Shown here piece after piece: positions 3,183-18,698 of a DNA stretch of 28,469 bases; the first letter of the stretch is position 1; each line of letters opens with the position of its first letter. This DNA is from Bacteroidetes bacterium GWA2_30_7 (GTDB taxonomy: Bacteria; Bacteroidota; Bacteroidia; Bacteroidales; GWF2-33-38). The notes beneath the pieces are model-generated. The model did no database searches, was not told the origin of the DNA, and worked only from the letters and a program-made list of their open reading frames with translations. The stretch lies in contig MENC01000202.1 in the NCBI GenBank assembly GCA_001768155.1, positions 1,088-29,556 of the forward strand, in the 5' to 3' direction. Position numbers and translations under genes: made by a program.

Positions 3183-5561
3183 TTGAGAAAAAAATACAAC
3201 AAATTATTGAATGTAAAAAGTGTAGTTATAATTTTTTTTGTAATTATCTCATTTTCATCTTGTCGTCCAACAAGATATGTTCCTGAAGGAAATTATTTGC
3301 TCAATAAATCTAAAATTGAAAGTAGTAATAAGCAAATTAATTCTGATGAACTCGAAAGTTATATAAAACAAAAAACTAACAAACGAATTTTATTGGTATT
3401 TCGCTTTCATTTATGGATTTATAATATTGCAAGTTCCGGAAAAGAACGTAAATGGAAAAGCAAAATTAAAGAAATTATTGGCGAAGAACCTGTTATATAT
3501 GACGATTTTCTTAAAACCAAAAGCACTAAGCAACTTTTACAATATCTGAAAAACAAAGGTTATTATAAAGCTATTGTTACTGATACTACAATTTACAAAA
3601 ACAAAAAGGCAAAAGTTGAATTTCGAATTAATTCGAATGAGGTTTATAAAATTAATAATATTGAATATCAGTTTGAAGACGATAGTGTTAAGCAAATTAT
3701 TCTTGATAATTCAAATAATTCGTTAATTAAAATAGGTTCTCCTCTTGATGTAGATTTGTTACAAAGTGAACGTAATAGAGTTGCTAATGTTATGAATAAT
3801 AATGGATATTATTACTTCTCAAAAGAATTTATTTATTACGAAGTTGACAGTAATTCATTTGAAAATGAAGCACGTATAAAAATTTCTATTAAAAAAAATG
3901 TAAGAAAAATTTCAGACGAAGAGTTTATAAACGAAAATCACAAAATATATAAAATCAGAAATATTTATGTTTATTCAGATTACGACCCAAAAGAGTTGTT
4001 ATCAGACCCAAATTTTTATAAAGAAAATTCTGACACATTGATATTTAATAATATAAATTTTATTTATAAAGATAAATTAACAGTTAAGCCGGGAATAATT
4101 TCGCAATCAACTTATATTAAGCCAAATGACATATTTAGCAAGACGATAACAGATAAAACGTATAAATCAATTTCTTCTTTACGAATTTTCAAATTAATCA
4201 ATATAGTTTATACCGATGTTAGTATCGAAAATGATAACTTACTTGATTGTTTTATTCAGCTTACACCTTTTACTCTACAATCATATACAGTTGAACTTGA
4301 AGGAACAAATTCGTCTGGGAATTTAGGAGTTGCATCAAATTTATTATATCAACATAAAAGCTTATTTAAAGGAGCCGAAATATTCGATATAAAATTCAAA
4401 GGAGCTTTAGAAGCACAAACTACAGAATTGAAAGATAATGATGGTATTATTCAAGAAAACATTCCATTTAATACTATTGAAATTGGTTCGGAATCTGGGC
4501 TGAGTTTTCAACAATTTTTATTACCGATTAGGTCCGAAAAATTTACGCAAAAATATAACCCAAGAACTAAAATATTGGTATCATATAACTTTCAAAACCG
4601 ACCCGATTATACAAGAACAATCCTAAAAAATTCGTTCGGTTACTACTGGAATGGCTCAAAATTTATCAAACATATTGTAAATCCGATAGAAATAAATTCT
4701 GTTAGAATTAAATATAATAGTGAAGAATTTATTGAATCAATTAAAGACCAATATATTAAATCAAGCTATACTAATCACCTTGTTACAGTTACCAGTTATA
4801 GCTTAATATATAACACTCAAAACATTAATAAAACTCGTAATTTTGTTTACATTAATTGGAATGCCGAATCGTCTGGCAACATTCTTACAGCAATAAATAA
4901 TTTTATTGGAACCGATACTATTGATGGTTCATATAATTTACTGGGTGTAAAGTATGCACAATTTGTAAAGTCTGAAATAGATTTACGATATTATAATATA
5001 TTAAATAAAGCAAATAATACCGTTATAAGATTTTTTGCAGGTTTAGGATTTCCGTATGGCAATATAAATGTTTTACCTTTCGAGAAAAAATATTTTAGTG
5101 GAGGAGCAAATAGCCTTCGAGCTTGGCAAGTACGTTCGTTGGGACCAGGCTCGTTTGTTGATTCACTAGGGCTTACTAATCAACTGGGAGATATAAAGTT
5201 AGAAGCTAATTTTGAATATCGTTTTAAACTTATTTGGGTTTTAGAAGGAGCATTCTTTATTGATGCCGGAAACATTTGGGCAATAAATAGTTATGATACC
5301 AGAGACGGTGCAATGTTTAAATTTTCAGAATTTTACAAACAGTCTGCAATTGGAACTGGATTAGGTGCAAGATTCGATTTTTCATTTTTTGTATTCCGAT
5401 TTGACGTTGGACTGAAAGTTCGTGAACCTCAATTTCAAAATAATCAAAGTTGGGTTATCGAAAATTTATTCGACAAAGAATGGAAGGAGAATTACAAATT
5501 AGCAAACGACAGAAAATATAGATTTTTTGCATTTAATTTTGGAATTGGTTATCCATTCTGA
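3183..5561 (+). CDS. tamL: Omp85-family (BamA/TamA-like) outer-membrane lipoprotein, TamL type
   Basis: Lipobox FSSC, POTRA-like segments (GEEPVIYD, LKNKGYYKAIV), beta-barrel motifs FSGGANSLRAW and GDIKLEANFEYRF, and C-terminal FGIGYPF. Confidence 0.88.
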   Translation: MRKKYNKLLNVKSVVIIFFVIISFSSCRPTRYVPEGNYLLNKSKIESSNKQINSDELESYIKQKTNKRILLVFRFHLWIYNIASSGKERKWKSKIKEIIGEEPVIYDDFLKTKSTKQLLQYLKNKGYYKAIVTDTTIYKNKKAKVEFRINSNEVYKINNIEYQFEDDSVKQIILDNSNNSLIKIGSPLDVDLLQSERNRVANVMNNNGYYYFSKEFIYYEVDSNSFENEARIKISIKKNVRKISDEEFINENHKIYKIRNIYVYSDYDPKELLSDPNFYKENSDTLIFNNINFIYKDKLTVKPGIISQSTYIKPNDIFSKTITDKTYKSISSLRIFKLINIVYTDVSIENDNLLDCFIQLTPFTLQSYTVELEGTNSSGNLGVASNLLYQHKSLFKGAEIFDIKFKGALEAQTTELKDNDGIIQENIPFNTIEIGSESGLSFQQFLLPIRSEKFTQKYNPRTKILVSYNFQNRPDYTRTILKNSFGYYWNGSKFIKHIVNPIEINSVRIKYNSEEFIESIKDQYIKSSYTNHLVTVTSYSLIYNTQNINKTRNFVYINWNAESSGNILTAINNFIGTDTIDGSYNLLGVKYAQFVKSEIDLRYYNILNKANNTVIRFFAGLGFPYGNINVLPFEKKYFSGGANSLRAWQVRSLGPGSFVDSLGLTNQLGDIKLEANFEYRFKLIWVLEGAFFIDAGNIWAINSYDTRDGAMFKFSEFYKQSAIGTGLGARFDFSFFVFRFDVGLKVREPQFQNNQSWVIENLFDKEWKENYKLANDRKYRFFAFNFGIGYPF

Positions 5562-5566
5562 TTAAA

Positions 5567-5598
5567 TTTGGAAAATAAAATAATGTTTTATAAATTTG
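5567..5598 (+). promoter_or_regulatory. Bacteroidota primary-sigma promoter (-33 TTTG, -7 TAAATTTG)
   Basis: TTTG at 5567-5570, 20-nt spacer, TAAATTTG at 5591-5598, ATG at 5623. Confidence 0.7.
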
Positions 5599-5622
5599 TT
5601 TTATAACATAAAAATAAACGAT

Positions 5623-6708
5623 ATGAAAAAATTTTTACAAATCATTTGCTTAATCGTTTTAACTGGCACATTTTCAACACTAAAGGCTCAAATAACTGTT
5701 GACGAATTTGATATGCCCGAAATTAACGATTTGTTTTTATATGCAAACGACAACACAACAATTACTGATACGACATTATTAGATTCTCTTGAGTTAATAG
5801 GCAATGCAGGAGAAAATCAAACTTGGGATTTAACATGGATAAAAAATGATGTTATAGATTCAAGCTATTTTTTTGACCCGGCTACTACACCCGATTTTGA
5901 CCAATTTCCAACAGCTAATTTAGCAACTACATCTAGCGACATGGGAATGGTTTATTTATTAAAAAATTCAACTAAAATTGAAGTTCTTGGTGCAATTGTT
6001 CCTACTGAATTTGGCTCAATGACAGCACACTTAAATCAAACAATTTTAACTTTACCAAACAATTATCAAAGTCAGCATCAAGACACTTCTGTTATAGATT
6101 TTACTTTTTACTTTGGTCAACAAATAGAAGGAATGCAAGTTGATTCATTACGATTTAAAAGCACAAATTTTATTTCATCTTTAACCGATGGTTGGGGCAC
6201 TGTTACAACACCACACTATACCGATAATGTTTTAAGAGTTAAAGAAAATACAATTACTGTTGACACTACTTGGGGTTATATAATTATTGTTCCTGATATA
6301 GTAGAATACTGGATAGCATTTGAAACAAAAATTGATTCTTCGATTACATACTCTTGGTTTCCTAAACTTATGGGTTCTGCTTTAGCAGATGTTACCGTTA
6401 AGCATGATACTATAACTGAAGCTAAATTTTTAGCAGATACAAATTTGCTTAATATTAATAAATTAAATTACGATAAATTTATTTCTATTTATCCAAACCC
6501 TGCAAATAATTTTATTACAATATTAACAACAGAAAACAATTGTAAATTAGAAATTTATAACATTACAGGGCAAAAATGTATTGATGCAGTTTTAGATAAC
6601 ATAAACAATATAGATGTACAAAATTTTAAAACAGGAATTTATATTTATAAAGTTTTCGATTCTGATAATACAATTAAAGAAACAGGAAAACTTAATATAA
6701 TTCATTAA
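5623..6708 (+). CDS. T9SS type-A sorting domain protein of unknown function
   Basis: Signal peptide MKKFLQ...LKAQ and a C-terminal domain ISIYPNPANNFITI...LEIYNITGQ...GIYIYKV...KLNIIH. Start moved to ATG 5623 because the annotated 5596 start overlaps the promoter box. Confidence 0.88.
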   Translation: MKKFLQIICLIVLTGTFSTLKAQITVDEFDMPEINDLFLYANDNTTITDTTLLDSLELIGNAGENQTWDLTWIKNDVIDSSYFFDPATTPDFDQFPTANLATTSSDMGMVYLLKNSTKIEVLGAIVPTEFGSMTAHLNQTILTLPNNYQSQHQDTSVIDFTFYFGQQIEGMQVDSLRFKSTNFISSLTDGWGTVTTPHYTDNVLRVKENTITVDTTWGYIIIVPDIVEYWIAFETKIDSSITYSWFPKLMGSALADVTVKHDTITEAKFLADTNLLNINKLNYDKFISIYPNPANNFITILTTENNCKLEIYNITGQKCIDAVLDNINNIDVQNFKTGIYIYKVFDSDNTIKETGKLNIIH

Positions 6709-8132: not shown

Positions 8133-9731
8133 ATGAAAATAAAATCGGCTCTTCTTCCAATAATATTCTCATTATTAATAATTTTAGGTATTTTTCTTGG
8201 ACGAATTTTAGATTCAGACGAAAGTAATTCAAGCTCATCACTACTTGTTAAAAAATATCATAAATTAACAAGTGTACTCGGTTATATCGAATCTGAATAT
8301 GTTGACGAAATTTCTTCAAATGAATTGATTGAAAAATCGTTACCATTTATTTTAGAAAACCTTGACCCTCATTCTGTATATATTCCAGCAAAAGAATTGA
8401 TGGGATTAAACGAATCTCTTGAAGGCAATTTTGATGGAATAGGAGTTCAGTTTAATATTCAGCACGATACAATTATAGTAATAAGTACGGTTTCTGGTGG
8501 ACCTTCCGAAAAATTAGGAATTATGGCTGGCGACAGAATTGTTAAAATTGATGACACATTAGTTGCAGGAATTAAAATTACAAATAATCAGGTACTTAAA
8601 AAATTAAAAGGATTAAAGGGTACAAAAGTTAAAGTTAGTATTCATCGAAATAAATTTCCCGAATTAATTGATTTTATAATAACCCGCGATGTAATTCCAT
8701 TGTATAGCGTAGATGTTGCATATATGATTGACGAAAAAATAGGCTATGTAAAAATTAGCAGTTTCGCTGCTACAACATATCAAGAATTTAAAAAAGCAGT
8801 TCTTCGACTACAAAAACAAAACATGAAAAAATTGATTGTAGATTTGAGAGGAAATGGTGGTGGATATTTAGATGCAGCAACAAAAATAACTGATGAATTT
8901 CTTGAAGACAAGAAATTAATAGTATATACTGAAGGAAAATCTCGCCCAAAAACAGTTACTTACTCAACAAGCAGAGGTTATTGTCATGAAACTGAGATAG
9001 TTGTTTTAATAGATGAATGGTCTGCGTCGGCAAGTGAAATTTTTGCAGGTGCAATTCAAGATAATGATAGAGGTACAATAATCGGAAGACGTTCGTTTGG
9101 AAAAGGGTTGGTTCAAGAACAAACTATGCTGCCAGATGGTTCAGCTTTGCGTCTTACAATTGCAAGATATTATACCCCATCAGGTAGAAGCATTCAAAAA
9201 CCCTACGAGCATGGAAATATTAATAAATACAATGAAGAAATTGTTGAAAGATATGTACATGGAGAGTTTTCTGAAAAAGACAGTATTAAAAATACAGATA
9301 GTTTAAAATACCATACAACAAAGGGTCGAACAGTATATGGTGGAGGTGGAATTATGCCCGACATTTTTATACCTGTTGATACACTTGGTTGGACTCCTTA
9401 TTTATCGGAAGTTTCAAACAAAGGACTCGTATATCAGTTTGCATTTGAATATGTTGACGAAAATAGAGATTTTTTAAGTAAATTTAATGATTATAAAGAA
9501 TTAGATGAATTTCTAAACAAAGCTCATTTAGTAAATCAATTTATACTTTTTGCTGAAAATAAAGGAGTTACAAAAAAATATAAGGAAATTAAAACATCTG
9601 AATTTATTATAAAAACACAAATTAAAGCTTACATTGCTCGAAACCTATTTGATAACGATGGATTTTATCCAATAATGAGAGAAGTTGATATCCCACTTAA
9701 AAGAGCAATTGAAGTTTTAACATCAAAATAA
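8133..9731 (+). CDS. S41 family C-terminal processing peptidase (CtpA/Prc-like) with PDZ domain
   Basis: LDPHSVY, GNFDGIGVQF (PDZ), VDLRGNGGGYL, catalytic Ser in SASASEIFAGAIQD, Lys in RRSFGKGLVQ, and RYYTPSGRSIQ. Confidence 0.93.
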   Translation: MKIKSALLPIIFSLLIILGIFLGRILDSDESNSSSSLLVKKYHKLTSVLGYIESEYVDEISSNELIEKSLPFILENLDPHSVYIPAKELMGLNESLEGNFDGIGVQFNIQHDTIIVISTVSGGPSEKLGIMAGDRIVKIDDTLVAGIKITNNQVLKKLKGLKGTKVKVSIHRNKFPELIDFIITRDVIPLYSVDVAYMIDEKIGYVKISSFAATTYQEFKKAVLRLQKQNMKKLIVDLRGNGGGYLDAATKITDEFLEDKKLIVYTEGKSRPKTVTYSTSRGYCHETEIVVLIDEWSASASEIFAGAIQDNDRGTIIGRRSFGKGLVQEQTMLPDGSALRLTIARYYTPSGRSIQKPYEHGNINKYNEEIVERYVHGEFSEKDSIKNTDSLKYHTTKGRTVYGGGGIMPDIFIPVDTLGWTPYLSEVSNKGLVYQFAFEYVDENRDFLSKFNDYKELDEFLNKAHLVNQFILFAENKGVTKKYKEIKTSEFIIKTQIKAYIARNLFDNDGFYPIMREVDIPLKRAIEVLTSK

Positions 9732-9842: not shown

Positions 9843-12131
9843 ATGAGAAAATTTACTTTTTTAATTTTAATGTTGTCTTTTTCGGTTTTTGCCATTGCAC
9901 AACAAATGGGAAAACTATTTCAAGAAAAAGCAATAAGTAAAAAAGATGTTGGAATACAAGCTCCTCCATCAATGTCATCTCGCTCAGTACAAGCTGTTGG
10001 AGATACTATTTATTACAACGATTTTTCCGACCCTTCAACTTGGGAAATTGGAAATTTCTCGGGCGATGCTCAAGACTTTGTTATTACAACTGACGGACCT
10101 ACTGGTTATTATTCAGCACCTATGGGAGCTATTAACTCAACTACAGCTTCAAACGGATTTGCACTTTTCGATGGAGATTTACTTGGTTGTAGCGGTTGTG
10201 CTCAACAAAATGCATATATTGCAACTAAGAGTTCTATTGACCTTACCGGTCATGAATATATTTCACTAGTATTTCAACAATATTATAGATCTTATACTAA
10301 TGAATCTTGTTTTATAGAAGTAAGTACAGATTCTGTAAATTGGACACAATTTTTATTTAATACTGGAATGGCTACAGGTGCAGTAACAGCAAATCCTAAA
10401 TTTATGTATTATAATATTTCATCTGCTGCAGGTAATCAACCACAAGTTTGGATTCGTCTTCACATTATTGCAGACTGGGGTTACGCTTGGATGATTGATG
10501 ATATTGCAGTAGTTGACGGTGCTGCTAATGACATAGTTTTAGAAGAAATTAATCCATGGTTTACAGCCGTTAATACTGCTGCTTCTCAATATTATATTCA
10601 AGGTTATCTTACTCAAATTCCATATACTCAGATTCCTTCACTTAATTATAATCTGGCTGCACTTTTTAATAATGGTCCTATGACTCAGAATCATCCAAAA
10701 TTAAACATTAAAATTAATGATTTCAACTCCGATGTTTTTGATGTTACAACAGATACAAGTTATGTTACCGGTGATACATTAAGCTTTTTAGAAGATGCTG
10801 TTAGAGATACCCTGTTTTCTTCAATCCCATTTTTGGCTCCTTCAGAATTAAAAAACTATAAAATGACTTTTACAATTTCGCAAGATGAAATTGATGCAAA
10901 CCCTGCAACCAATGTTGATACTGCAAGTTTTTCTATTACTGAAACAACTTTTTCTCACAATAATAGATTTAATTCTCGTATAGGACCAGATATGTACACA
11001 GGTTTTGCCAATGGCGACTTAATTGGTGCTAAATTTTCATTCGTAAATGCTCAAGAAGTTAATTCAATTTCATATTACATTCATCCTGAAAGTACAATAG
11101 GAGCTTCTTTCTTTGCCCAGCTATATAGTTATGATTTTGGAAGTCAGTCGTGGGTTCCATTACTTGCAAACATTAATGCTTACACAATTACTGCTGATGA
11201 CCTTGATAAATGGATAACAGTACCCCTTGAAAAAGATGGTTCTGGCGAATTTATTGCAGCCGAAACTATGGTTGCTGCTGCAATGTCGGTTAGTGTAGTT
11301 GATGAAGCTAATGATGGAATACATTTAAGATCAGATAATTCAGCTAAACATTATTTTGCTGGAGAATCACTTTTAAGATTAGGCGCAGATTATTATTATG
11401 TAGATTATTCTCCTGGAATTATTTTAAATTTAGTTCCAATTGCTTCTATTCCTTTACAAGTTTATGTAACAAATAGTACTACAACTTTTTGTGTTGGTAG
11501 TAGCGATGGAACAATTACTGTAACAGGTGCCGGTGGTTCAGCTCCTTATACTTACGAATGGTTTGATGGAAGCACTTCTGAAACTATAACTGGATTAAGT
11601 GTAGGTAGTTATTCTGTAACAGTAACTGATGCAAGTTTTGATCAAGTTTCAGGAACATTTAGTGTTACTGAACCTGATGCTATTGTCCTTTCTGATACTC
11701 CAGATTGGAATTCAATTGATTTAATTGTTAATGGTGGAACACCTCCATATACATATTCATGGGTTGGTCCAAGTTCATATACTGCATATACTCAAGACAT
11801 TGATGGCTTATCTCCAGGTGCATACACAGTTACTGTAACTGATGCTAAAGGTTGTACTGATACATTAACTGAAGTTATAACAAATATTGTTAATGGTAAT
11901 TCAAAAGTTATTAATGTTTATCCAAACCCAACAAACGGATTTATTAATATAGCTAATGCTGAAAACTCAAAAATTACAGTATATAATATTATTGGTGAGT
12001 CTTTGGTATCTATTACAAATAACAAATCAATTGCCAAAATAGATATAAGTAATTTAGCAGAAGGCACTTATATTATTAGAATAGTTTCTAATAATAATGC
12101 TACTACTAAGAGAATTTACTTAGTTAAATAA
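9843..12131 (+). CDS. T9SS type-A cargo protein with two SprB-like repeats
   Basis: Signal peptide, N-terminal beta-sandwich region, SprB-like repeats (GGSAPYTYEW...GLSVGSYSVTVTDA and GGTPPYTYSW...GLSPGAYTVTVTDAKGC), and C-terminal domain NVYPNPTNG...GTYIIRI...KRIYLVK. Confidence 0.9.
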   Translation: MRKFTFLILMLSFSVFAIAQQMGKLFQEKAISKKDVGIQAPPSMSSRSVQAVGDTIYYNDFSDPSTWEIGNFSGDAQDFVITTDGPTGYYSAPMGAINSTTASNGFALFDGDLLGCSGCAQQNAYIATKSSIDLTGHEYISLVFQQYYRSYTNESCFIEVSTDSVNWTQFLFNTGMATGAVTANPKFMYYNISSAAGNQPQVWIRLHIIADWGYAWMIDDIAVVDGAANDIVLEEINPWFTAVNTAASQYYIQGYLTQIPYTQIPSLNYNLAALFNNGPMTQNHPKLNIKINDFNSDVFDVTTDTSYVTGDTLSFLEDAVRDTLFSSIPFLAPSELKNYKMTFTISQDEIDANPATNVDTASFSITETTFSHNNRFNSRIGPDMYTGFANGDLIGAKFSFVNAQEVNSISYYIHPESTIGASFFAQLYSYDFGSQSWVPLLANINAYTITADDLDKWITVPLEKDGSGEFIAAETMVAAAMSVSVVDEANDGIHLRSDNSAKHYFAGESLLRLGADYYYVDYSPGIILNLVPIASIPLQVYVTNSTTTFCVGSSDGTITVTGAGGSAPYTYEWFDGSTSETITGLSVGSYSVTVTDASFDQVSGTFSVTEPDAIVLSDTPDWNSIDLIVNGGTPPYTYSWVGPSSYTAYTQDIDGLSPGAYTVTVTDAKGCTDTLTEVITNIVNGNSKVINVYPNPTNGFINIANAENSKITVYNIIGESLVSITNNKSIAKIDISNLAEGTYIIRIVSNNNATTKRIYLVK

Positions 12132-12265: not shown

Positions 12266-13186
12266 ATGAATATATCAATGATGAACTCAAAACATTTATT
12301 ACTAATATTTTCAGCTTTATATTTTCTGGTATTTTTTGCAGCTTGTAAAAGCACTACAAATACAAACGAAAATGTTGAAGATAAGTTAGATGTAGAAATT
12401 GACACTACAATGAGTACTGTTTTAAAATTTAATAATACTTTATTTAGTATTCCGTCACCCTATCAACTTGCAATTTTGATTAAGAATTTAAAAATTGACT
12501 ACAACAAGGAATTTTTGAACTCTACCGGTAAAGCTATTAATTATACAGATAATTTTCAAAAAGCATTAAATTTTGGAATTTACGGAGCAGACTTAGGATA
12601 TTTAAATATATACGAACAAACTCCAGAAGCAATAAATTACTTTTCGGTAATGAAATCAATGTCGCAGGAATTAGGTATTTCAAGTGCTTTCGACAAGGCA
12701 ACAATTAATAGAATTGAAAATAATATGGGCAATAAAGATTCTCTTCTATTTATTATGTCAAACACTTATCGAAAAGCAGATGCTTATCTAAAAGAGAATA
12801 ATCGAAATGAAATGGGTGTACTTATTCTTGCCGGTGGTTGGATTGAAAGTATTCATATTATTACACAAATTGCTGTAAATAAAAATGCTCCACAGCAAAT
12901 AATCGACAGATTAGGTGAACAAAAACACCCTCTTGACAATCTTATTAAAATATTATCACCATATTATAATCAATCTGAGAAATTTGCTGAATTGCTTGAT
13001 GGTTTAATTGATTTAGCTTATGAATTTGATGGAGTTAACTATGAATATCAGTATAAAGAACCAACTGTAATACCAAGCGAAAAACTTACTATTATTAATA
13101 GTACATCAAAAATTATTATTTCTCAAGAACAACTAAAAACAATTGCTGAAAAAATATCAATTATTAGAAAAAAAATAATTGAATAA
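12266..13186 (+). CDS. Lipoprotein of unknown function, predicted all-helical
   Basis: Lipobox FAAC after a hydrophobic stretch; segments ALNFGIYGADLGY and LAGGWIE. The true start may be a downstream ATG (12278 or 12281). Confidence 0.85.
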   Translation: MNISMMNSKHLLLIFSALYFLVFFAACKSTTNTNENVEDKLDVEIDTTMSTVLKFNNTLFSIPSPYQLAILIKNLKIDYNKEFLNSTGKAINYTDNFQKALNFGIYGADLGYLNIYEQTPEAINYFSVMKSMSQELGISSAFDKATINRIENNMGNKDSLLFIMSNTYRKADAYLKENNRNEMGVLILAGGWIESIHIITQIAVNKNAPQQIIDRLGEQKHPLDNLIKILSPYYNQSEKFAELLDGLIDLAYEFDGVNYEYQYKEPTVIPSEKLTIINSTSKIIISQEQLKTIAEKISIIRKKIIE

Positions 13187-13205: not shown

Positions 13206-13625
13206 ATGAAAAAAATTGTAATATTTATTATATGTATTGTAGCAACACTTTCATCAATAGATGTAGTAGCTCAATCTGACACATTAGTTAAAATTTGTAC
13301 AAAATATTTAGGTTCTCCATATATATCAGATGGTCAGCAATATAAAGCTTTGTTAAACGGAGACGAAATAGCTGAATTTCATGCTACATTTTATGGAGGA
13401 AGTACATATAGAATAGTAGGAGCTAGTGGATTAAATGAAGGCAATCTTGTGTTTTCTGTTTATGATATTGAAAGAAATTTATTATTTACTAATAGAAATT
13501 ATCAAAATACAGCATTTTGGGATTTTAAATTTAATTCAACAATTGATTGTATAATCGAAGCAGAACTTGATGCCAAAAATTTAGATTCTGGTTTTGCTTT
13601 ATTATTGATAGGATTTAAACAATAA
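13206..13625 (+). CDS. Small exported protein, predicted beta-sandwich
   Basis: Signal peptide MKKIV...VVAQ and alternating beta-strand pattern (TFYGGSTYRIV, LVFSVYD, FALLLIGFK); 19 nt downstream of the lipoprotein gene. Confidence 0.85.
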   Translation: MKKIVIFIICIVATLSSIDVVAQSDTLVKICTKYLGSPYISDGQQYKALLNGDEIAEFHATFYGGSTYRIVGASGLNEGNLVFSVYDIERNLLFTNRNYQNTAFWDFKFNSTIDCIIEAELDAKNLDSGFALLLIGFKQ

Positions 13626-13713: not shown

Positions 13714-16700
13714 ATGAGCGAAAGGATTCTAAAAGCTTTAATGCAATTATTTGCAATAATTGCACCACCTGAAAGTAACCCTACCGACAGGAGAAGTGTT
13801 GTGGAATCGTTTCTGAAACTATTACTTAATCAAGAATTAGTTAAAGAATATCTTAAAGTTTTTGATGAATACTATGAAGTATATCAAAAAAAACAAAATG
13901 AAGAAACTACAAAAAGAAAGAAAAACATATCATTAAGTTCTGTAAAAGTTCTTAAAATATGTACAGCAATAAACGAAGAACTTACACAAAAACAAAAGCT
14001 AGTAGTAATAGTTCGTTTACTTGAATTTATAAAAGCAGATTTTCAAGAAATTTCCGACCAAGAATTAGAGTTTGTTGAAACAGTAGCTGATGCATTTCAT
14101 ATTTCATTAGAAGAATATTCAAGAGTTAAGTCATTTGTATTAAATGACTTTCAAGAAATCCCAAATTCAAATAAATTATTATTAATTGATGATAACGAAC
14201 GTGCATTTAACGATGATTTAAAGCACATTCATTCACATGCATTACATGGTCAAATTAAAATTATGCAACTTGCTGTTGGCGAAATATATTTACTTCGTTT
14301 CCATGGTGGTAGTGAGTTGTATCTCAACGGTCAATTAGTACGACAATCAAAAATTTTTATATTAACCACAGGTTCTTCAATTAGAAATCTGAAAATTAAA
14401 CCTATTTATTACAGCGATATAATATCAGCTTTTAATATTGATAAATTAAAAGTTAAAACCGTATATGAAGTTAAATACGTTGACTATAAATTTAAAGGAG
14501 GAAAATACGGATTACATAATATTAATTTTACAGAAGAATCCGGAAAATTAGTTGGAATAATGGGTGCAAGCGGGGCTGGAAAATCTACATTACTTAATGT
14601 ATTAAATGGAGCATATAAACCAACCTCTGGATACGTCAATATTAACGGCGTAAATATGTACACCGAAAAGGAAAAGGTTGAAGGATTGATAGGATATGTG
14701 TCTCAGGATGACCTTTTAATAGAAGAGTTATCAGTTTTTCAAAATTTATTCTATAATGCAAAACTGTGTTTCGATAATTTAACCGAACAACAAATTGTTA
14801 AGAGAGTATTGCGAATTCTCGAAAGTCTTGGTTTATACGAAATTAAAGATATGGTTGTAGGTAATCCTCTTAATAAAAAAATAAGTGGCGGTCAACGAAA
14901 AAGACTAAACATTGCATTAGAACTTATTAGAGAACCATCGATTCTTTTTTTAGATGAACCTACATCTGGCTTATCATCAAGAGATTCAGAAAATATTATG
15001 GATTTACTAAAAGAATTAGCTTTAAAAGGTAAGCTGGTTTTTGTAGTTATTCATCAACCGTCTTCAGATATTTTCAAGATGTTTGATAAACTGATTATCC
15101 TTGATACAGGTGGATTTATGATTTATTGTGGAAATCCGGTTGACTCAATTATATATTTTAAATCAAGAATTCATCAAGCCGATTGGAACGATAGTGAGTG
15201 CCGAACCTGTGGGAATGTAAATCCAGAGCAGGTTTTTAATATAGTTGAAGCTCCAGTTCTTGATGAATATGGAAATGCAACTCACACCCGAAAAATTTCT
15301 CCAAAAGAGTGGGCATCTTACTATACAGAATTTTCGAAACAAGAAGCAGCAAAGATTTTTGAAATTCCAAAAGAAGTCCCTGAAATAAGTTTCAAAGTTC
15401 CTAATTGGTTTAAACAATTTAGAGTTTTCGTTATTAGAGATGTATTATCTAAAATTGCGAATACACAATATATGGTAATTAATTTACTTGAAACACCATT
15501 ATTGGCATTTCTATTATCTTTTATAATAAGATATTACAGCGTTGATGTAACAAATGAATATGGTTATACTATTAGCGACAATACTAACCTTCCTGTATAT
15601 ATTTTCATGGCTGTAATAGTTGCTATTTTTATAGGACTAACTGTAAGTGCAGAAGAAATAATTAAAGATAGGAAAATATTAAAAAGAGAATCTTTTTTAA
15701 ATTTAAGCAGGTCAAGTTATTTGATGTCGAAAGTTGTTATACTATTAACTCTTTCAGCATTTCAAGCATTTACTTTTGTAATTATTGGCAATTTGATAAT
15801 GGATATCTCAGGCATGTATTTTCATTATTGGTTAGTTCTTTTCAGTGCATTTAGTTTTTCAAATATGTTGGGATTGAATATTTCAGATAGCTTTAAAACA
15901 GCTGTAACTATATATATATTAATTCCTTTTCTAGTTATTCCTCAAATGATATTATCTGGAATAATTGTAAAATTTGATAAATTAAATCCAAATATTTCAT
16001 CCCCAAGTGAAATACCAATTTATGGTGAGATAATTACTGCAAGATGGGCTTATGAGGCACTTGCTGTTTTTCAGTTTATACATAATGATTATGAAAAATT
16101 ATTTTATCCGTATGATAAAGTGATGAGTGAAGCAAATTATAAGAAAGATTATTGGTTGCCTATATTAAAAAACAAAGTTACTTCTTGTAAGAGAGATTTA
16201 GATAAACCAGAAAAGAAAACACAAATTATTTCATATCTTGAATTGCTTAGAAATGAGATATATAAAGAATTAAATAGTAATAAAAAAATTGCATTTAATG
16301 AAGTAAATCAACTTTATTACGATAAATTAAACTTAAATGTAATAATTTCTACTGAGCAATATCTGGATCAATTAAATAAATATTTTATAAAAAAATATAA
16401 TAAAGCAAATTCAGAAAAAGATGCTTTATTGTCTAGTTTGCAAAAAACCGACCAAGAAAAGAAAAAGTTAATAATGCTTAAAAAGAATCATTATAATGAA
16501 AACCTTTCTGAATTTGTAACCAACTCAAATTCACTTGACAGAATAGTTGAATTTAATAATCATTTATATCAGAAATTAGACCCAATTTTTCAAGACCCAT
16601 CTGGAAGTTTTATAAAATCGCACTTTTATTCGCCCAGAAAAAAATTATTTGGTTCAAGTGTAGATACCTTTTGGGTTAATGTATTTGTAATGTGGTTTAT

Positions 16701-16797
16701 GACAATTATTCTTTATATAACTTTATATTTTAAAGGATTAAAGAAATTGTTGGACTTTTTCGCCAGAATAACAAGCAAATTCACTTCTACAAATTAG
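13714..16797 (+). CDS. ABCG-type (NBD-TMD) fused ABC transporter with N-terminal TerB-like and possible FHA-like domains
   Basis: Walker A GASGAGKS (14563-14586), Q-loop VSQDD, signature ISGGQRKR (14881-14904), Walker B FLDEP, H-loop IHQP and an ABC-2-type membrane region. N-terminal ADFQEISDQELEFVETVADAFHIS resembles TerB. Confidence 0.9.
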   Translation: MSERILKALMQLFAIIAPPESNPTDRRSVVESFLKLLLNQELVKEYLKVFDEYYEVYQKKQNEETTKRKKNISLSSVKVLKICTAINEELTQKQKLVVIVRLLEFIKADFQEISDQELEFVETVADAFHISLEEYSRVKSFVLNDFQEIPNSNKLLLIDDNERAFNDDLKHIHSHALHGQIKIMQLAVGEIYLLRFHGGSELYLNGQLVRQSKIFILTTGSSIRNLKIKPIYYSDIISAFNIDKLKVKTVYEVKYVDYKFKGGKYGLHNINFTEESGKLVGIMGASGAGKSTLLNVLNGAYKPTSGYVNINGVNMYTEKEKVEGLIGYVSQDDLLIEELSVFQNLFYNAKLCFDNLTEQQIVKRVLRILESLGLYEIKDMVVGNPLNKKISGGQRKRLNIALELIREPSILFLDEPTSGLSSRDSENIMDLLKELALKGKLVFVVIHQPSSDIFKMFDKLIILDTGGFMIYCGNPVDSIIYFKSRIHQADWNDSECRTCGNVNPEQVFNIVEAPVLDEYGNATHTRKISPKEWASYYTEFSKQEAAKIFEIPKEVPEISFKVPNWFKQFRVFVIRDVLSKIANTQYMVINLLETPLLAFLLSFIIRYYSVDVTNEYGYTISDNTNLPVYIFMAVIVAIFIGLTVSAEEIIKDRKILKRESFLNLSRSSYLMSKVVILLTLSAFQAFTFVIIGNLIMDISGMYFHYWLVLFSAFSFSNMLGLNISDSFKTAVTIYILIPFLVIPQMILSGIIVKFDKLNPNISSPSEIPIYGEIITARWAYEALAVFQFIHNDYEKLFYPYDKVMSEANYKKDYWLPILKNKVTSCKRDLDKPEKKTQIISYLELLRNEIYKELNSNKKIAFNEVNQLYYDKLNLNVIISTEQYLDQLNKYFIKKYNKANSEKDALLSSLQKTDQEKKKLIMLKKNHYNENLSEFVTNSNSLDRIVEFNNHLYQKLDPIFQDPSGSFIKSHFYSPRKKLFGSSVDTFWVNVFVMWFMTIILYITLYFKGLKKLLDFFARITSKFTSTN

Positions 16798-16946
16798 TGA
16801 CTTTTTTAGATTCAACTTGTTTCAGTATTTAAACAATTTACAAAATAAAAGTTTCAGAGATTCTGAAGTTCAGAATAACATTCTGAATTACTTTACTGAT
16901 TTTGTTGAGTTTGTGAATAAACTTTAATTAAATTTTACTAAACAAC

Positions 16947-16976
16947 AAAAGCTAAGCTGTTTTCACAACTTAGCTT
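16947..16976 (-). terminator. Intrinsic terminator for siaBC
   Basis: Minus strand reads AAGCTAAGTTGT-GAAA-ACAGCTTAGCTT then TT. One G-U pair and the GNRA loop work only in this orientation; it lies 25 nt after the siaC stop. Confidence 0.75.
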
Positions 16977-17001
16977 AATTTATTATTAACGTAATAAATT
17001 A

Positions 17002-17382
17002 TTACTCTTCTATTTCAATCATTTTAAATGGGATGCGGATAATAGATTGATAATCTTCACCAGCTTCCAACATATCCTCATCATCTTCTTCGTAATACCA
17101 GTTTATTAACACTTCATTACCAGACTTATGAATAGTTTCTAATTTCTTAAAAACATCAAGAATACATTTTGATGAACTAGTGTTGAAATATTCTAATTGT
17201 ACATTAACCTCTGTTAAGCCTTTTGGTGTACTAGAATATTTTTCTAACCAATCAACTAACGGTTTGTAAAATTCAATTGAATTTTCAGGAATTGATCTTC
17301 CTTTAATTTCAACTTTCCCAGAATTAAAATCAAAATTTACACTTGGGGTTTTAGGTGTTCCTTCTATTGTTATTGACTCCAT
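17002..17382 (-). CDS. siaC: SiaC family phosphoprotein (DUF1987)
   Basis: TPxVxFD, GRSIPEN, LEYFNTSSSK (Thr68), INWYYEEDDEDMLEAGEDY and IPFKMIE. Confidence 0.92.
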   Translation of the reverse strand: MESITIEGTPKTPSVNFDFNSGKVEIKGRSIPENSIEFYKPLVDWLEKYSSTPKGLTEVNVQLEYFNTSSSKCILDVFKKLETIHKSGNEVLINWYYEEDDEDMLEAGEDYQSIIRIPFKMIEIEE

Positions 17383-17421
17383 ACTATTTAAGTTTTAATA
17401 ATTTATACTAATCTACAACAT

Positions 17422-17958
17422 TTATACATTAAATCCAAAAATAAAAAAATAATATTCTTCAGAAAACTGCTCAAAACAATATTCAAGTTTGCTGTCAGTT
17501 CTTTTTACTATATCAATCATTCCTAATCCACCACCGCCTTTTTCCGAAAATTCTTCGTTATTTAAAACCATTTTATAAAGAGCTTTAATTTCTTCATGTG
17601 ATAATGAATTTAACTGTTCAATTCTGTCTTTTATAAAATGAATTTTATCTTTTTTAATAAAATTTCCAGTTATTACTTTAAAATTTTCACCATATTTTAA
17701 AACTGAAAAAATTGCATATTTATCAGGATTACCATTAAATTGATATTGCTCCGAATGATGATATAAGTTTTGTAAAGATTCAACTAATACATTATAAAGC
17801 TTTTTTGTTTGCCTAGAGTTATTATCAATTTCTTGTAGCTTATTCTCAATCATTTCTAACGTATCTGCAATTAATTCAGATGAAATAGAACCTTTATAAG
17901 TAAATAAAACATCATTTTTACTTATACTATCATACCAAGAATCTAAACTAAAACTCAT
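17422..17958 (-). CDS. siaB: SiaB family GHKL-like Ser/Thr protein kinase (DUF6272)
   Basis: YKGSISSELI, LVESLQNLYHH (E/N box), ITGNFI and G-rich SEKGGGGLGMIDI; directly upstream of siaC. Confidence 0.88.
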   Translation of the reverse strand: MSFSLDSWYDSISKNDVLFTYKGSISSELIADTLEMIENKLQEIDNNSRQTKKLYNVLVESLQNLYHHSEQYQFNGNPDKYAIFSVLKYGENFKVITGNFIKKDKIHFIKDRIEQLNSLSHEEIKALYKMVLNNEEFSEKGGGGLGMIDIVKRTDSKLEYCFEQFSEEYYFFIFGFNV

Positions 17959-17996
17959 TAATTTACTTTACAAACTAGATAAAATCCTTACTGACA

Positions 17997-18004
17997 CAAA
18001 TATA
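17997..18004 (-). promoter_or_regulatory. Candidate -7 box TATATTTG for siaBC
   Basis: Matches TAnnTTTG on the minus strand 38 nt upstream of ATG 17958. Confidence 0.55.
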
Positions 18005-18090
18005 AAAAAAATATTAATAATATATCATAAATTTAAAATAGTTGAACGCAGTTTATTAATTTTTTTTTTAAATTATCAATAATTGGCGAC

Positions 18091-18115
18091 AGATTGCTTC
18101 GTAACTCGTAACTAC
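18091..18115 (+). repeat. Degenerate copy of the AGATTGCTTCGTTCCTCGCAATGAC REP-like element
   Basis: agattgcttcgtaactcgtaactac matches the 22970 copy at 20/25 positions. Confidence 0.65.
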
Positions 18116-18191
18116 AATATACCACGAAATAGCAAGGTACGGAACTATCTTAATTTTAATTTTTTATTTTTTTTTACTGATTTTTGAGAAC

Positions 18192-18698
18192 TTACTTATT
18201 GTTCCTGATATATTTATATGTACTATTCCAAATATTGTTTCCAGAATAAGTTTTGAGAAAAGTTACCAAATCTTTTGTGCTGTTAATTTCATATTTCACA
18301 GAATCTTTATGAATTGTAGAAAAAATTAAAGAATCGTTAGAAAGATTAAACTTTATTATTAGAAAACCATCTTCAAGTTTATCTTTTTCGTAAAATCTAA
18401 CATTTGCATATTCGTTAGGTTTTAGTTTGGTTAAGAATGCTTTAGCCATTACAAATGAATCCGGATATTCATCAGGAATCATTTTTAAATTATAATTCTT
18501 ATTATCTATACTTGTTACTTCTAAAATATGTTTTTCTGTTGATGAACTTGTATCATTTTTAATTTCGATAAATCTCCAACTTCCAATTAAATCACTTTTA
18601 TAATATGATTTATTTTCTTTTCCGGCAGGAAATGACGAAAAATAATCACTACAAGAAGAAAAAAAAGATAATAGTAAAATAAAGAATATTAGTCTCAT
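18192..18698 (-). CDS. Lipoprotein of unknown function
   Basis: Lipobox FSSC at residues 13-16; beta-rich mature region. Confidence 0.75.
   Translation of the reverse strand: MRLIFFILLLSFFSSCSDYFSSFPAGKENKSYYKSDLIGSWRFIEIKNDTSSSTEKHILEVTSIDNKNYNLKMIPDEYPDSFVMAKAFLTKLKPNEYANVRFYEKDKLEDGFLIIKFNLSNDSLIFSTIHKDSVKYEINSTKDLVTFLKTYSGNNIWNSTYKYIRNNK

Follow-up and report, generated by a model that had tools for sequence, protein, structure and literature searches.

What does a Sia-type phosphorylation switch control when neither the phosphatase SiaA nor the diguanylate cyclase SiaD is encoded beside it? The question is posed by two adjacent genes, siaB and siaC, in a stretch of 28,469 nucleotides (nt) from Bacteroidetes bacterium GWA2_30_7 (Bacteroidales; GenBank assembly GCA_001768155.1, contig MENC01000202.1, positions 1,088 to 29,556), hereafter the window, where the pair faces a convergently oriented gene for an ABCG-type half transporter of the ATP-binding cassette (ABC) class. 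In Pseudomonas aeruginosa, SiaC in its unphosphorylated form attaches via N67/T68/S69 to the helical stalks of SiaD and stabilizes the active dimer, phosphorylation by SiaB blocks SiaC-SiaD binding and SiaA reverses this, and DUF1987 proteins may "modulate adjacent proteins" (PMC8457831). The comparative genomic analysis described here makes it probable that the pair in the window is a Sia-type kinase/phosphoprotein switch that works independently of cyclic di-GMP (c-di-GMP) and has the convergent ABCG-type exporter as its output. To our knowledge, no role of the Sia switch other than the control of a diguanylate cyclase and of biofilm formation in Pseudomonas has been described, and the class Bacteroidia mostly lacks c-di-GMP signaling.

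The gene that we denote siaC (17002..17382, minus strand) encodes a SiaC-family (DUF1987) phosphoprotein of 126 amino acids (aa), which matches the PF09345 SiaC profile over positions 1-119 of 120 (E 2e-46; 157 bits, cut-off 24.5) and the P. aeruginosa SiaC of known structure (PDB 6KKO chain C; 6KKO/6K4F) with an E-value of 1.9e-22. The aligned stretch LEYFNTSSSK contains the N67-T68-S69 motif, and the ACT codon of Thr68 (17179..17181, minus strand) falls on the phospho-acceptor position of P. aeruginosa SiaC; the YFNTSS sequence with this threonine, pointed out in a preliminary description of the locus made from the sequence alone, is borne out by the alignment with 6KKO chain C. On the same strand, separated from siaC by 39 nt, lies siaB (17422..17958), the 178-aa product of which is a predicted GHKL-type protein kinase of the SiaB family, with matches to PF19788/DUF6272 (E 2e-34), to the NCBIfam subfamily model NF038262 "SiaB family protein kinase" (142.1 bits, cut-off 85) and to SiaB of PDB 6KKO chain A (E 2.5e-9). 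Given that both proteins score under the cut-offs of the NCBI equivalog models, SiaC with 103.9 bits against the 150 of NF038265 ("biofilm regulation phosphoprotein SiaC") and SiaB with 64.6 bits against the 225 of NF038264, they are, by these scores, family members and not orthologues of the Pseudomonas biofilm proteins.

A search of the whole assembly, a Bacteroidales metagenome-assembled genome from groundwater (4.1 Mb in 308 contigs, 79% complete, 30% G+C), with the GGDEF profile PF00990 yielded no matches, and the same profile found none in 21 SiaC-bearing relatives or in four genomes from outside the order (G127, G143, G147 and G151). The SpoIIE/PP2C phosphatase domain is represented by 77 matches in about 60 genes, none of them on the contig of the window (C202). 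The earlier observation that the window contains neither a PP2C nor a GGDEF gene therefore holds; the designation of the pair as an orphan is correct locally, where siaA and siaD are both missing, and fails at the genome level, where an operon of siaA-like, siaB, siaC and ABC genes is present on contig C91 along with the roughly 60 PP2C genes. A cognate siaD elsewhere in the genome was not found by the GGDEF search, and a siaA-like PP2C was found, in the C91 operon. For an assembly of 4.1 Mb, this is a very extensive signaling repertoire, and many of the PP2C genes stand in tandem arrays on contigs C25, C148, C69 and C244. Altogether, the genome encodes 7 SiaC proteins and 6 DUF6272/SiaB domains.

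The arrangement in the window, which we denote T1, consists of genes for a lipoprotein, a small exported protein and the ABC transporter that converge on siaC-siaB, without a phosphatase gene. Its conservation was assessed in three samples. Among the 80 species-representative genomes closest to the window in the sequence of the transporter N-terminal domain (N-domain), 65 were informative, with a complete ABC gene followed by 1.2 kb or more of sequence, and a convergent siaC-siaB pair adjoined the ABC gene in 50 of these, with a median gap of 79 nt. In a broader sample of 41 genomes including the window's own (39 other families of the order, each represented once, plus one more genome of its genus and one of its family), 24 encode the N-domain and 21 encode SiaC, the latter in every case together with the N-domain; after retrieval of the loci, T1 was recognized in 13 genomes of this sample. 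Outside the order, a sample of 251 genomes of the phylum added two families with the N-domain, both belonging to the same class, and T1 was seen there in G143, G147 and G127. Far from being unique to this genome, the adjacency of siaBC and the ABC gene therefore extends to 50 of the 65 informative genomes and to another order of the class. The genome G147, which is 100% complete, has a single siaC gene and a single ABC gene of this kind, in convergent orientation, along with five PP2C genes and no GGDEF protein; the closed genome G031 encodes two SiaC proteins, one at a T1 locus and the other at a locus of the second type described next.

This second type, T2, is represented in the same genome on contig C91, where genes for a PP2C phosphatase, SiaB, SiaC, a 1003-aa ABC transporter, a 301-aa lipoprotein and a 147-aa protein follow each other on a single strand. 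T2 is present in 19 of the 41 genomes, always co-directional and in the order GAF-PAS-PAS-PP2C, siaB, siaC, ABC, lipoprotein, small protein, as well as in G151, which belongs to another order of Bacteroidia. The T2 phosphatase is a protein of approximately 870 aa with GAF-PAS-PAS-PP2C architecture, and for its catalytic part the SiaA model is the best match (E 1e-48); the ABC gene occupies the position that siaD takes in the Pseudomonas operon. The copy of T2 in the window's own genome has a run of N in the ABC gene (L024:4889-7900), which translates as X for about 26 residues behind the signature/Walker B region, and its PP2C gene is truncated where the contig ends; this operon is therefore incompletely assembled. 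A third ABC paralogue, T3, is located on contig C24 without adjacent sia genes.

Given that the T1 and T2 ABC proteins of this genome are 47% identical over their full length, including a 259-aa N-terminal extension, and that the respective lipoproteins are homologous, the genome by sequence comparison holds two paralogous copies of a module of siaBC, ABC transporter and lipoprotein. In the SiaC tree, the T1 proteins (support 99/95) and the T2 proteins (95/88) form separate clades that parallel the ABC paralogues, a pattern in favor of an ancient duplication of the entire module. Thr68 is invariant among the ABC-linked SiaC proteins (58 of 58 in T1 and 19 of 19 in T2, altogether 77 of 77), and the two groups differ consistently near the phospho-site (S69 in T1 vs A69 in T2, Q62 vs K62, C73 vs L73). 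The SiaB motifs VE.LQN, TGN and GGGGLG..DIA.K, which correspond to the ATP-binding N-box and glycine-rich lid of GHKL proteins, are kept in 62 T1 and 19 T2 sequences. Across 65 T1 loci, the median identity of SiaC reaches 79%, compared to 76% for the ATPase core of the transporter, 53% for the N-domain and 46% for SiaB; such conservation is compatible with a small protein constrained at several contact surfaces and does not say which surfaces these are. The proposal of the preliminary description that SiaC has a different, c-di-GMP-independent output, with the adjacent ABCG transporter as an obvious candidate, draws support from the conserved linkage, the T2 operon and the GGDEF searches.

The proposed output of the switch is a half transporter of 1027 aa (13714..16797, plus strand) comprising the N-domain, a nucleotide-binding domain (NBD) and a transmembrane domain (TMD), with a loop of about 225 aa before the last transmembrane helix. 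The Pfam domains ABC_tran (residues 267-418) and ABC2_membrane (568-759) follow each other in one chain, and the best NCBIfam match is TIGR00955 (E 5e-76, under the cut-off of that model). Since the N-domain precedes the NBD with no membrane segment between them, both are predicted from the sequence to be cytoplasmic and accessible to SiaB and SiaC, in neither of which hydropathy profiles detected a hydrophobic segment. The N-domain (13714..14490, plus strand) is a candidate docking site for SiaC. An AlphaFold 2 model of residues 1-260, built on 37 homologues (predicted local distance difference test score 84.7 overall and about 90 in the FHA-like part), comprises two units, a TerB-like helical bundle (residues 1-144), for which the fold search retrieved Porphyromonas gingivalis PG1108 (2h5n, Z 9.3) and the tellurite-resistance protein 2ou3 of the COG3793 TerB family (Z 7.4), and an FHA-like beta domain (residues 150-238), which matches more than 40 FHA domains at Z 5.5-7.0, including Rv1747 FHA-2 (6cah, Z 6.1), EssC and DgcB. 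All of the top 50 Foldseek matches of the latter part are FHA domains, with weak E-values (0.017 or weaker). Sequence profiles fall short of these assignments: the Pfam TerB model gives 18.2 bits against a cut-off of 24.4, and the FHA profile PF00498 had no match in the transporter at E of 0.01 or below. The most conserved part of the N-domain is its N-terminal helix, that is, the first 17 residues of the transporter (13714-13765; MSE.ILKALMQLFAII, consensus MSE.ILKAL..LFA), which is nearly invariant in T1, T2, T3 and in other orders of the class and far more conserved than the remainder of the domain, and this suggests a conserved docking or autoinhibitory helix.

Several observations weigh against control of this transporter by SiaC, and the first group of these concerns the N-domain itself. 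Within residues 150-238, the only near-invariant or invariant columns are N205, G220, P230, Y232, S234 and D235 (alignment A1, read by eye); full invariance is confined to the Asn of "LNG", and the canonical Gly-Arg and Ser-x-x-His are not conserved at the places where they would be expected, as judged by eye without a residue-level structural alignment. The modeled domain thus looks like a degenerate FHA domain and is not an evident phosphothreonine reader. The preliminary description had called the N-terminus TerB/FHA-like and the second part of it a segment resembling phosphothreonine readers: the model agrees with both folds, and the residues that would make a reader are not conserved. Furthermore, the N-domain with its near-invariant helix is present in T3, the paralogue without neighboring sia genes, as well as in G210, a genome without SiaC, and is therefore not there solely to receive SiaC. 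Similarly, the five other SiaC paralogues of the genome, beyond those of T1 and T2, adjoin other kinds of genes, which indicates that, judging by gene context, the SiaC proteins of this genome are not all transporter regulators.

These facts lend themselves to a different explanation, namely that the transporter is the input and not the output, its N-domain reporting transport to SiaB and SiaC as in flux-sensing "trigger" transporters, with SiaC acting on an unlinked target. An N-domain that predates SiaC or exists without it would be compatible with such a role, the many SiaC paralogues and PP2C sensors suggest a network, and the direction of signaling is not given by genomic linkage alone. 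Nevertheless, T2 already contains a dedicated cytoplasmic sensor, the GAF-PAS-PAS-PP2C protein, and no other candidate output gene; every SiaC in G147 and G031 adjoins an ABC gene; and the T1 and T2 loci inspected revealed no conserved third partner. We therefore consider a transporter that signals to SiaC unlikely, and regulation of the transporter by SiaC remains the preferred explanation.

The second group of contrary observations concerns the linkage. In the window, the ABC gene and siaC-siaB are convergent and so not co-transcribed; 15 of the 65 orthologous ABC loci lack an adjoining siaC-siaB pair; and 40 of the 60 T1 loci keep an rlmL-like methyltransferase gene beyond siaB, so that part of the conservation is inherited gene order. 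If the entire adjacency were of this kind, siaBC could be a general-purpose switch that acts on an unlinked protein, and the convergent orientation, the rlmL-like neighbor, unrelated as it is, with the accompanying pnuC/S41 block, and the detachment of the pair in the 15 loci would be in line with such a scenario. We nonetheless regard it as improbable. The gene beyond siaB falls into 13 clusters, 12 of them other than rlmL and including that of the window, so the junction of the ABC gene with siaC-siaB has outlived many rearrangements, surviving at least 12 changes of the outer neighbor, and it recurs in another order. In addition, a second, independent and co-directional architecture (T2) joins paralogous siaBC and ABC genes, and none of the sampled genomes has T1 SiaC without T1 ABC or the reverse. 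In five genomes with a detached T1 pair, the pair is intact elsewhere and the T1 ABC gene is retained. In the closest other genus (N-domain 72% identical; L041:11718-12284 and L067:5848-6414), the convergent siaC-siaB pair has moved away, and a divergent lone siaB-like gene precedes the lipoprotein gene and has the same direction as the ABC module. The S41 peptidase, pnuC and rlmL genes found near many T1 loci were considered as parts of the system and set aside, as they are of housekeeping type and not kept in the arrangement of the window.

A further issue is the source of the dephosphorylating activity. No phosphatase gene conserved at T1 loci was seen, and, as far as gene content tells, T1 SiaC must be dephosphorylated in trans. 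T2 is missing from the T1-bearing genomes G147, G143 and G127 and was not detectable in G036, which also has T1, so that the T2 PP2C cannot be the universal partner of T1. When PP2C proteins were ranked by the SiaA model, no clear winner emerged as the cognate phosphatase even in the small repertoires of G147 and G031, which contain four or five similar unlinked PP2C. That the T1 pair is instead a side arm without a phosphatase of its own, which competes for the T2 PP2C or regulates the T2 or T3 transporter, would accommodate the lack of a PP2C gene conserved at T1 loci, the presence of T2 in 12 of the 13 sampled genomes where the T1 pair adjoins the ABC gene and the N-domain common to the three ABC paralogues, and is about as improbable as mere inheritance of gene order, given the four genomes with T1 and no detected T2 and the consistent T1/T2 differences near the SiaC phospho-site, which suggest insulated specificities. 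Direct control of the neighboring pump appears more economical than each of these three explanations.

A mechanism compatible with direct control can be outlined by analogy. The siaB/siaC switch of the window would have lost, or would never have had, a diguanylate cyclase output. As in the SiaC-SiaD case, SiaB would phosphorylate SiaC at Thr68, and a PP2C encoded elsewhere, either the GAF-PAS-PAS-PP2C of C91 or another of the approximately 60, would dephosphorylate it. One phospho-state of SiaC, probably the unphosphorylated one, would then bind the half transporter, with the TerB-like/FHA-like N-domain and the NBD as candidate sites. Being a half transporter, the protein must dimerize, and binding of SiaC might change its dimerization or ATPase activity and thereby gate export, in which the lipoprotein and the small exported protein would take part. 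A bolder version of this scheme, which we put forward tentatively as somewhat short of probable, is that SiaC is the phospho-regulated gate of an as yet undescribed envelope export machine of Bacteroidia, built from the ABCG half transporter with its TerB/FHA-like cytoplasmic domain, the lipoprotein and a small periplasmic protein, and the Sia switch an ancient regulator of transport that operates without c-di-GMP, with the "off" signal for T1 coming in trans from the 60 or so PP2C and the pump serving as a point of convergence of signals.

Several features point to the siaB-siaC pair as a putative transcription unit of its own. A 12-bp terminator-like hairpin with a T-rich tail (16949..16976, minus strand) lies 3' of siaC, in the 204 nt that separate it from the convergent ABC gene, and was the sole match in a terminator scan of 16700-18300, where 0.2 would be expected. 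At 39 nt 5' of the siaB start codon, there is a candidate Bacteroidota -7 box, TATATTTG (17997..18004, minus strand), which fits TAnnTTTG. This motif is not enriched across the window (48 occurrences vs 55.7 expected in DNA of 30% G+C). Given that, of 62 orthologous T1 loci, 46 have a copy in the 120 nt that precede siaB, mostly 31-68 nt from the start codon, compared with only 1 of 19 operon-internal (T2) siaB genes, a promoter specific to the siaB-siaC pair is plausible. The two-gene unit with candidate promoter and terminator, as originally described, is consistent with the single hairpin in this region and the recurrence of the -7 box in T1 loci. The open reading frame (ORF) upstream of siaB, orf168 (18192-18698), was rejected as a member of the unit because it is conserved within the genus only. 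The sequencing runs that contain the window sequence are all groundwater metagenome DNA, with shares of 0.09 or less; the named relatives are metagenome-assembled genomes of uncultured Bacteroidales/Bacteroidota, the nearest runs again being groundwater metagenomes.

The exporter gene is preceded on the plus strand by the genes of its two putative partners. The 306-aa lipoprotein (12266..13186), in which a lipobox can be read, has homologues adjoining the T1, T2 and T3 ABC genes, and the 139-aa exported protein (13206..13625), with a signal-peptide-like N-terminus, is conserved between the lipoprotein and ABC genes in T1 loci. Neither protein matched a family when Pfam, NCBIfam and atlas names were sought. 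The exporter/lipoprotein module is present in at least 584 species-representative genomes. Just 5' of the module in the window are genes for an Omp85-family protein (3183-5561) and for two proteins with type IX secretion C-terminal sorting domains (5596-6708 and 9843-12131, one with SprB repeats); the linkage of these genes to the module is not conserved.

Sia proteins in this genome and its relatives are found in several additional contexts. Contig C219 encodes a fused SiaB-SiaB protein of 370 aa followed by a separate siaC (L026:2143-3255), and single-chain SiaB-SiaB-SiaC proteins of approximately 520 aa are present in three other families (L155:2281-3837, L157:568-2085, L158:2322-3881); by their domain composition, these natural fusions support the pairing of kinase and substrate only. 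Fusions of SiaC to the transporter N-domain were sought among the large SiaC-bearing ORFs and none was found, these ORFs being SiaB-SiaB-SiaC chains, one SiaC-TPR protein and one protein of 740 aa. In an 8-Mb relative, an nSTAND1-NTPase-PP2C gene (686 aa) is followed by one for a SiaC-TPR fusion (469 aa; L159:69-3542), another wiring of SiaC that involves no cyclase. On contig C246 (L028:4417-7660), a lone siaB-like gene without siaC lies directly 5' of genes for a 693-aa double-AAA ATPase and a 171-aa AAA-lid protein. A third conserved context of siaBC is a co-directional siaB-siaC pair directly 5' of a gene for an S41 C-terminal processing peptidase, a homologue of which is encoded at 8133-9731 of the window (L076:14217-16776, L104:13587-16152, L113:11998-14571 and about seven more loci); the SiaC proteins of these loci form a separate clade (100/97) with Ser in place of Thr at position 68. 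Also on C219 (L026:3440-4367), the gene for D-Ala-D-Ala ligase is split into ORFs of 191 and 109 aa, which may reflect a frameshift, an assembly error or a pseudogene.

If exporter control by SiaC is real, DUF1987/SiaC proteins would be general-purpose, phospho-controlled adaptors, and the system would stand as a clear example, in bacteria, of post-translational transporter control by a partner switch. It would also provide a handle on an uncharacterized and widespread exporter/lipoprotein module of the Bacteroidia envelope, and open a route to the signals sensed by the very large PP2C families of these bacteria. We did not find Sia-transporter coupling in the literature on SiaB/SiaC with ABC transporters or Bacteroidetes, on DUF1987 and on partner switching in Bacteroidota.

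The closest known system is SiaABCD of P. aeruginosa (PA0172-PA0169; PDB 6KKO, 6K4F, 7E6G; PMC8457831, PMC7647112), which has in common with the loci described here the SiaB-family kinase and the SiaC/DUF1987 protein with N67-T68-S69 and, in the case of T2, also the PP2C phosphatase. T2 further retains the SiaABCD gene order of phosphatase, kinase, phosphoprotein and output, although its phosphatase carries cytoplasmic GAF-PAS-PAS sensors in contrast to the membrane/HAMP module of SiaA. Unlike SiaABCD, neither this genome nor the searched relatives were found to encode a GGDEF protein or SiaD, the output position is taken by an ABCG-type exporter, and the copy in the window lacks an adjacent phosphatase gene and is convergent to the exporter gene. 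On the transporter side, a functional analogue is Rv1747 of Mycobacterium tuberculosis, an ABCG-like exporter with N-terminal FHA domains that is controlled by a Hanks-type Ser/Thr kinase. The two share the half-transporter layout with the NBD before the TMD, a cytoplasmic N-terminal module of FHA fold and a link to Ser/Thr phospho-signaling, and they differ in that the TerB-like bundle of the protein encoded in the window is followed by a single, degenerate FHA-like domain, and its putative signaling partners are a GHKL-type kinase and a separate small phosphoprotein. Finally, as in the STAS switches HsbA-HsbD and BgrV-BgrR (cited in PMC8457831), a PP2C phosphatase and a kinase would set the phospho-state of a small effector-binding protein, but here the small protein belongs to the DUF1987/SiaC family and the proposed effector is a membrane transporter rather than a cyclase or an anti-sigma factor.

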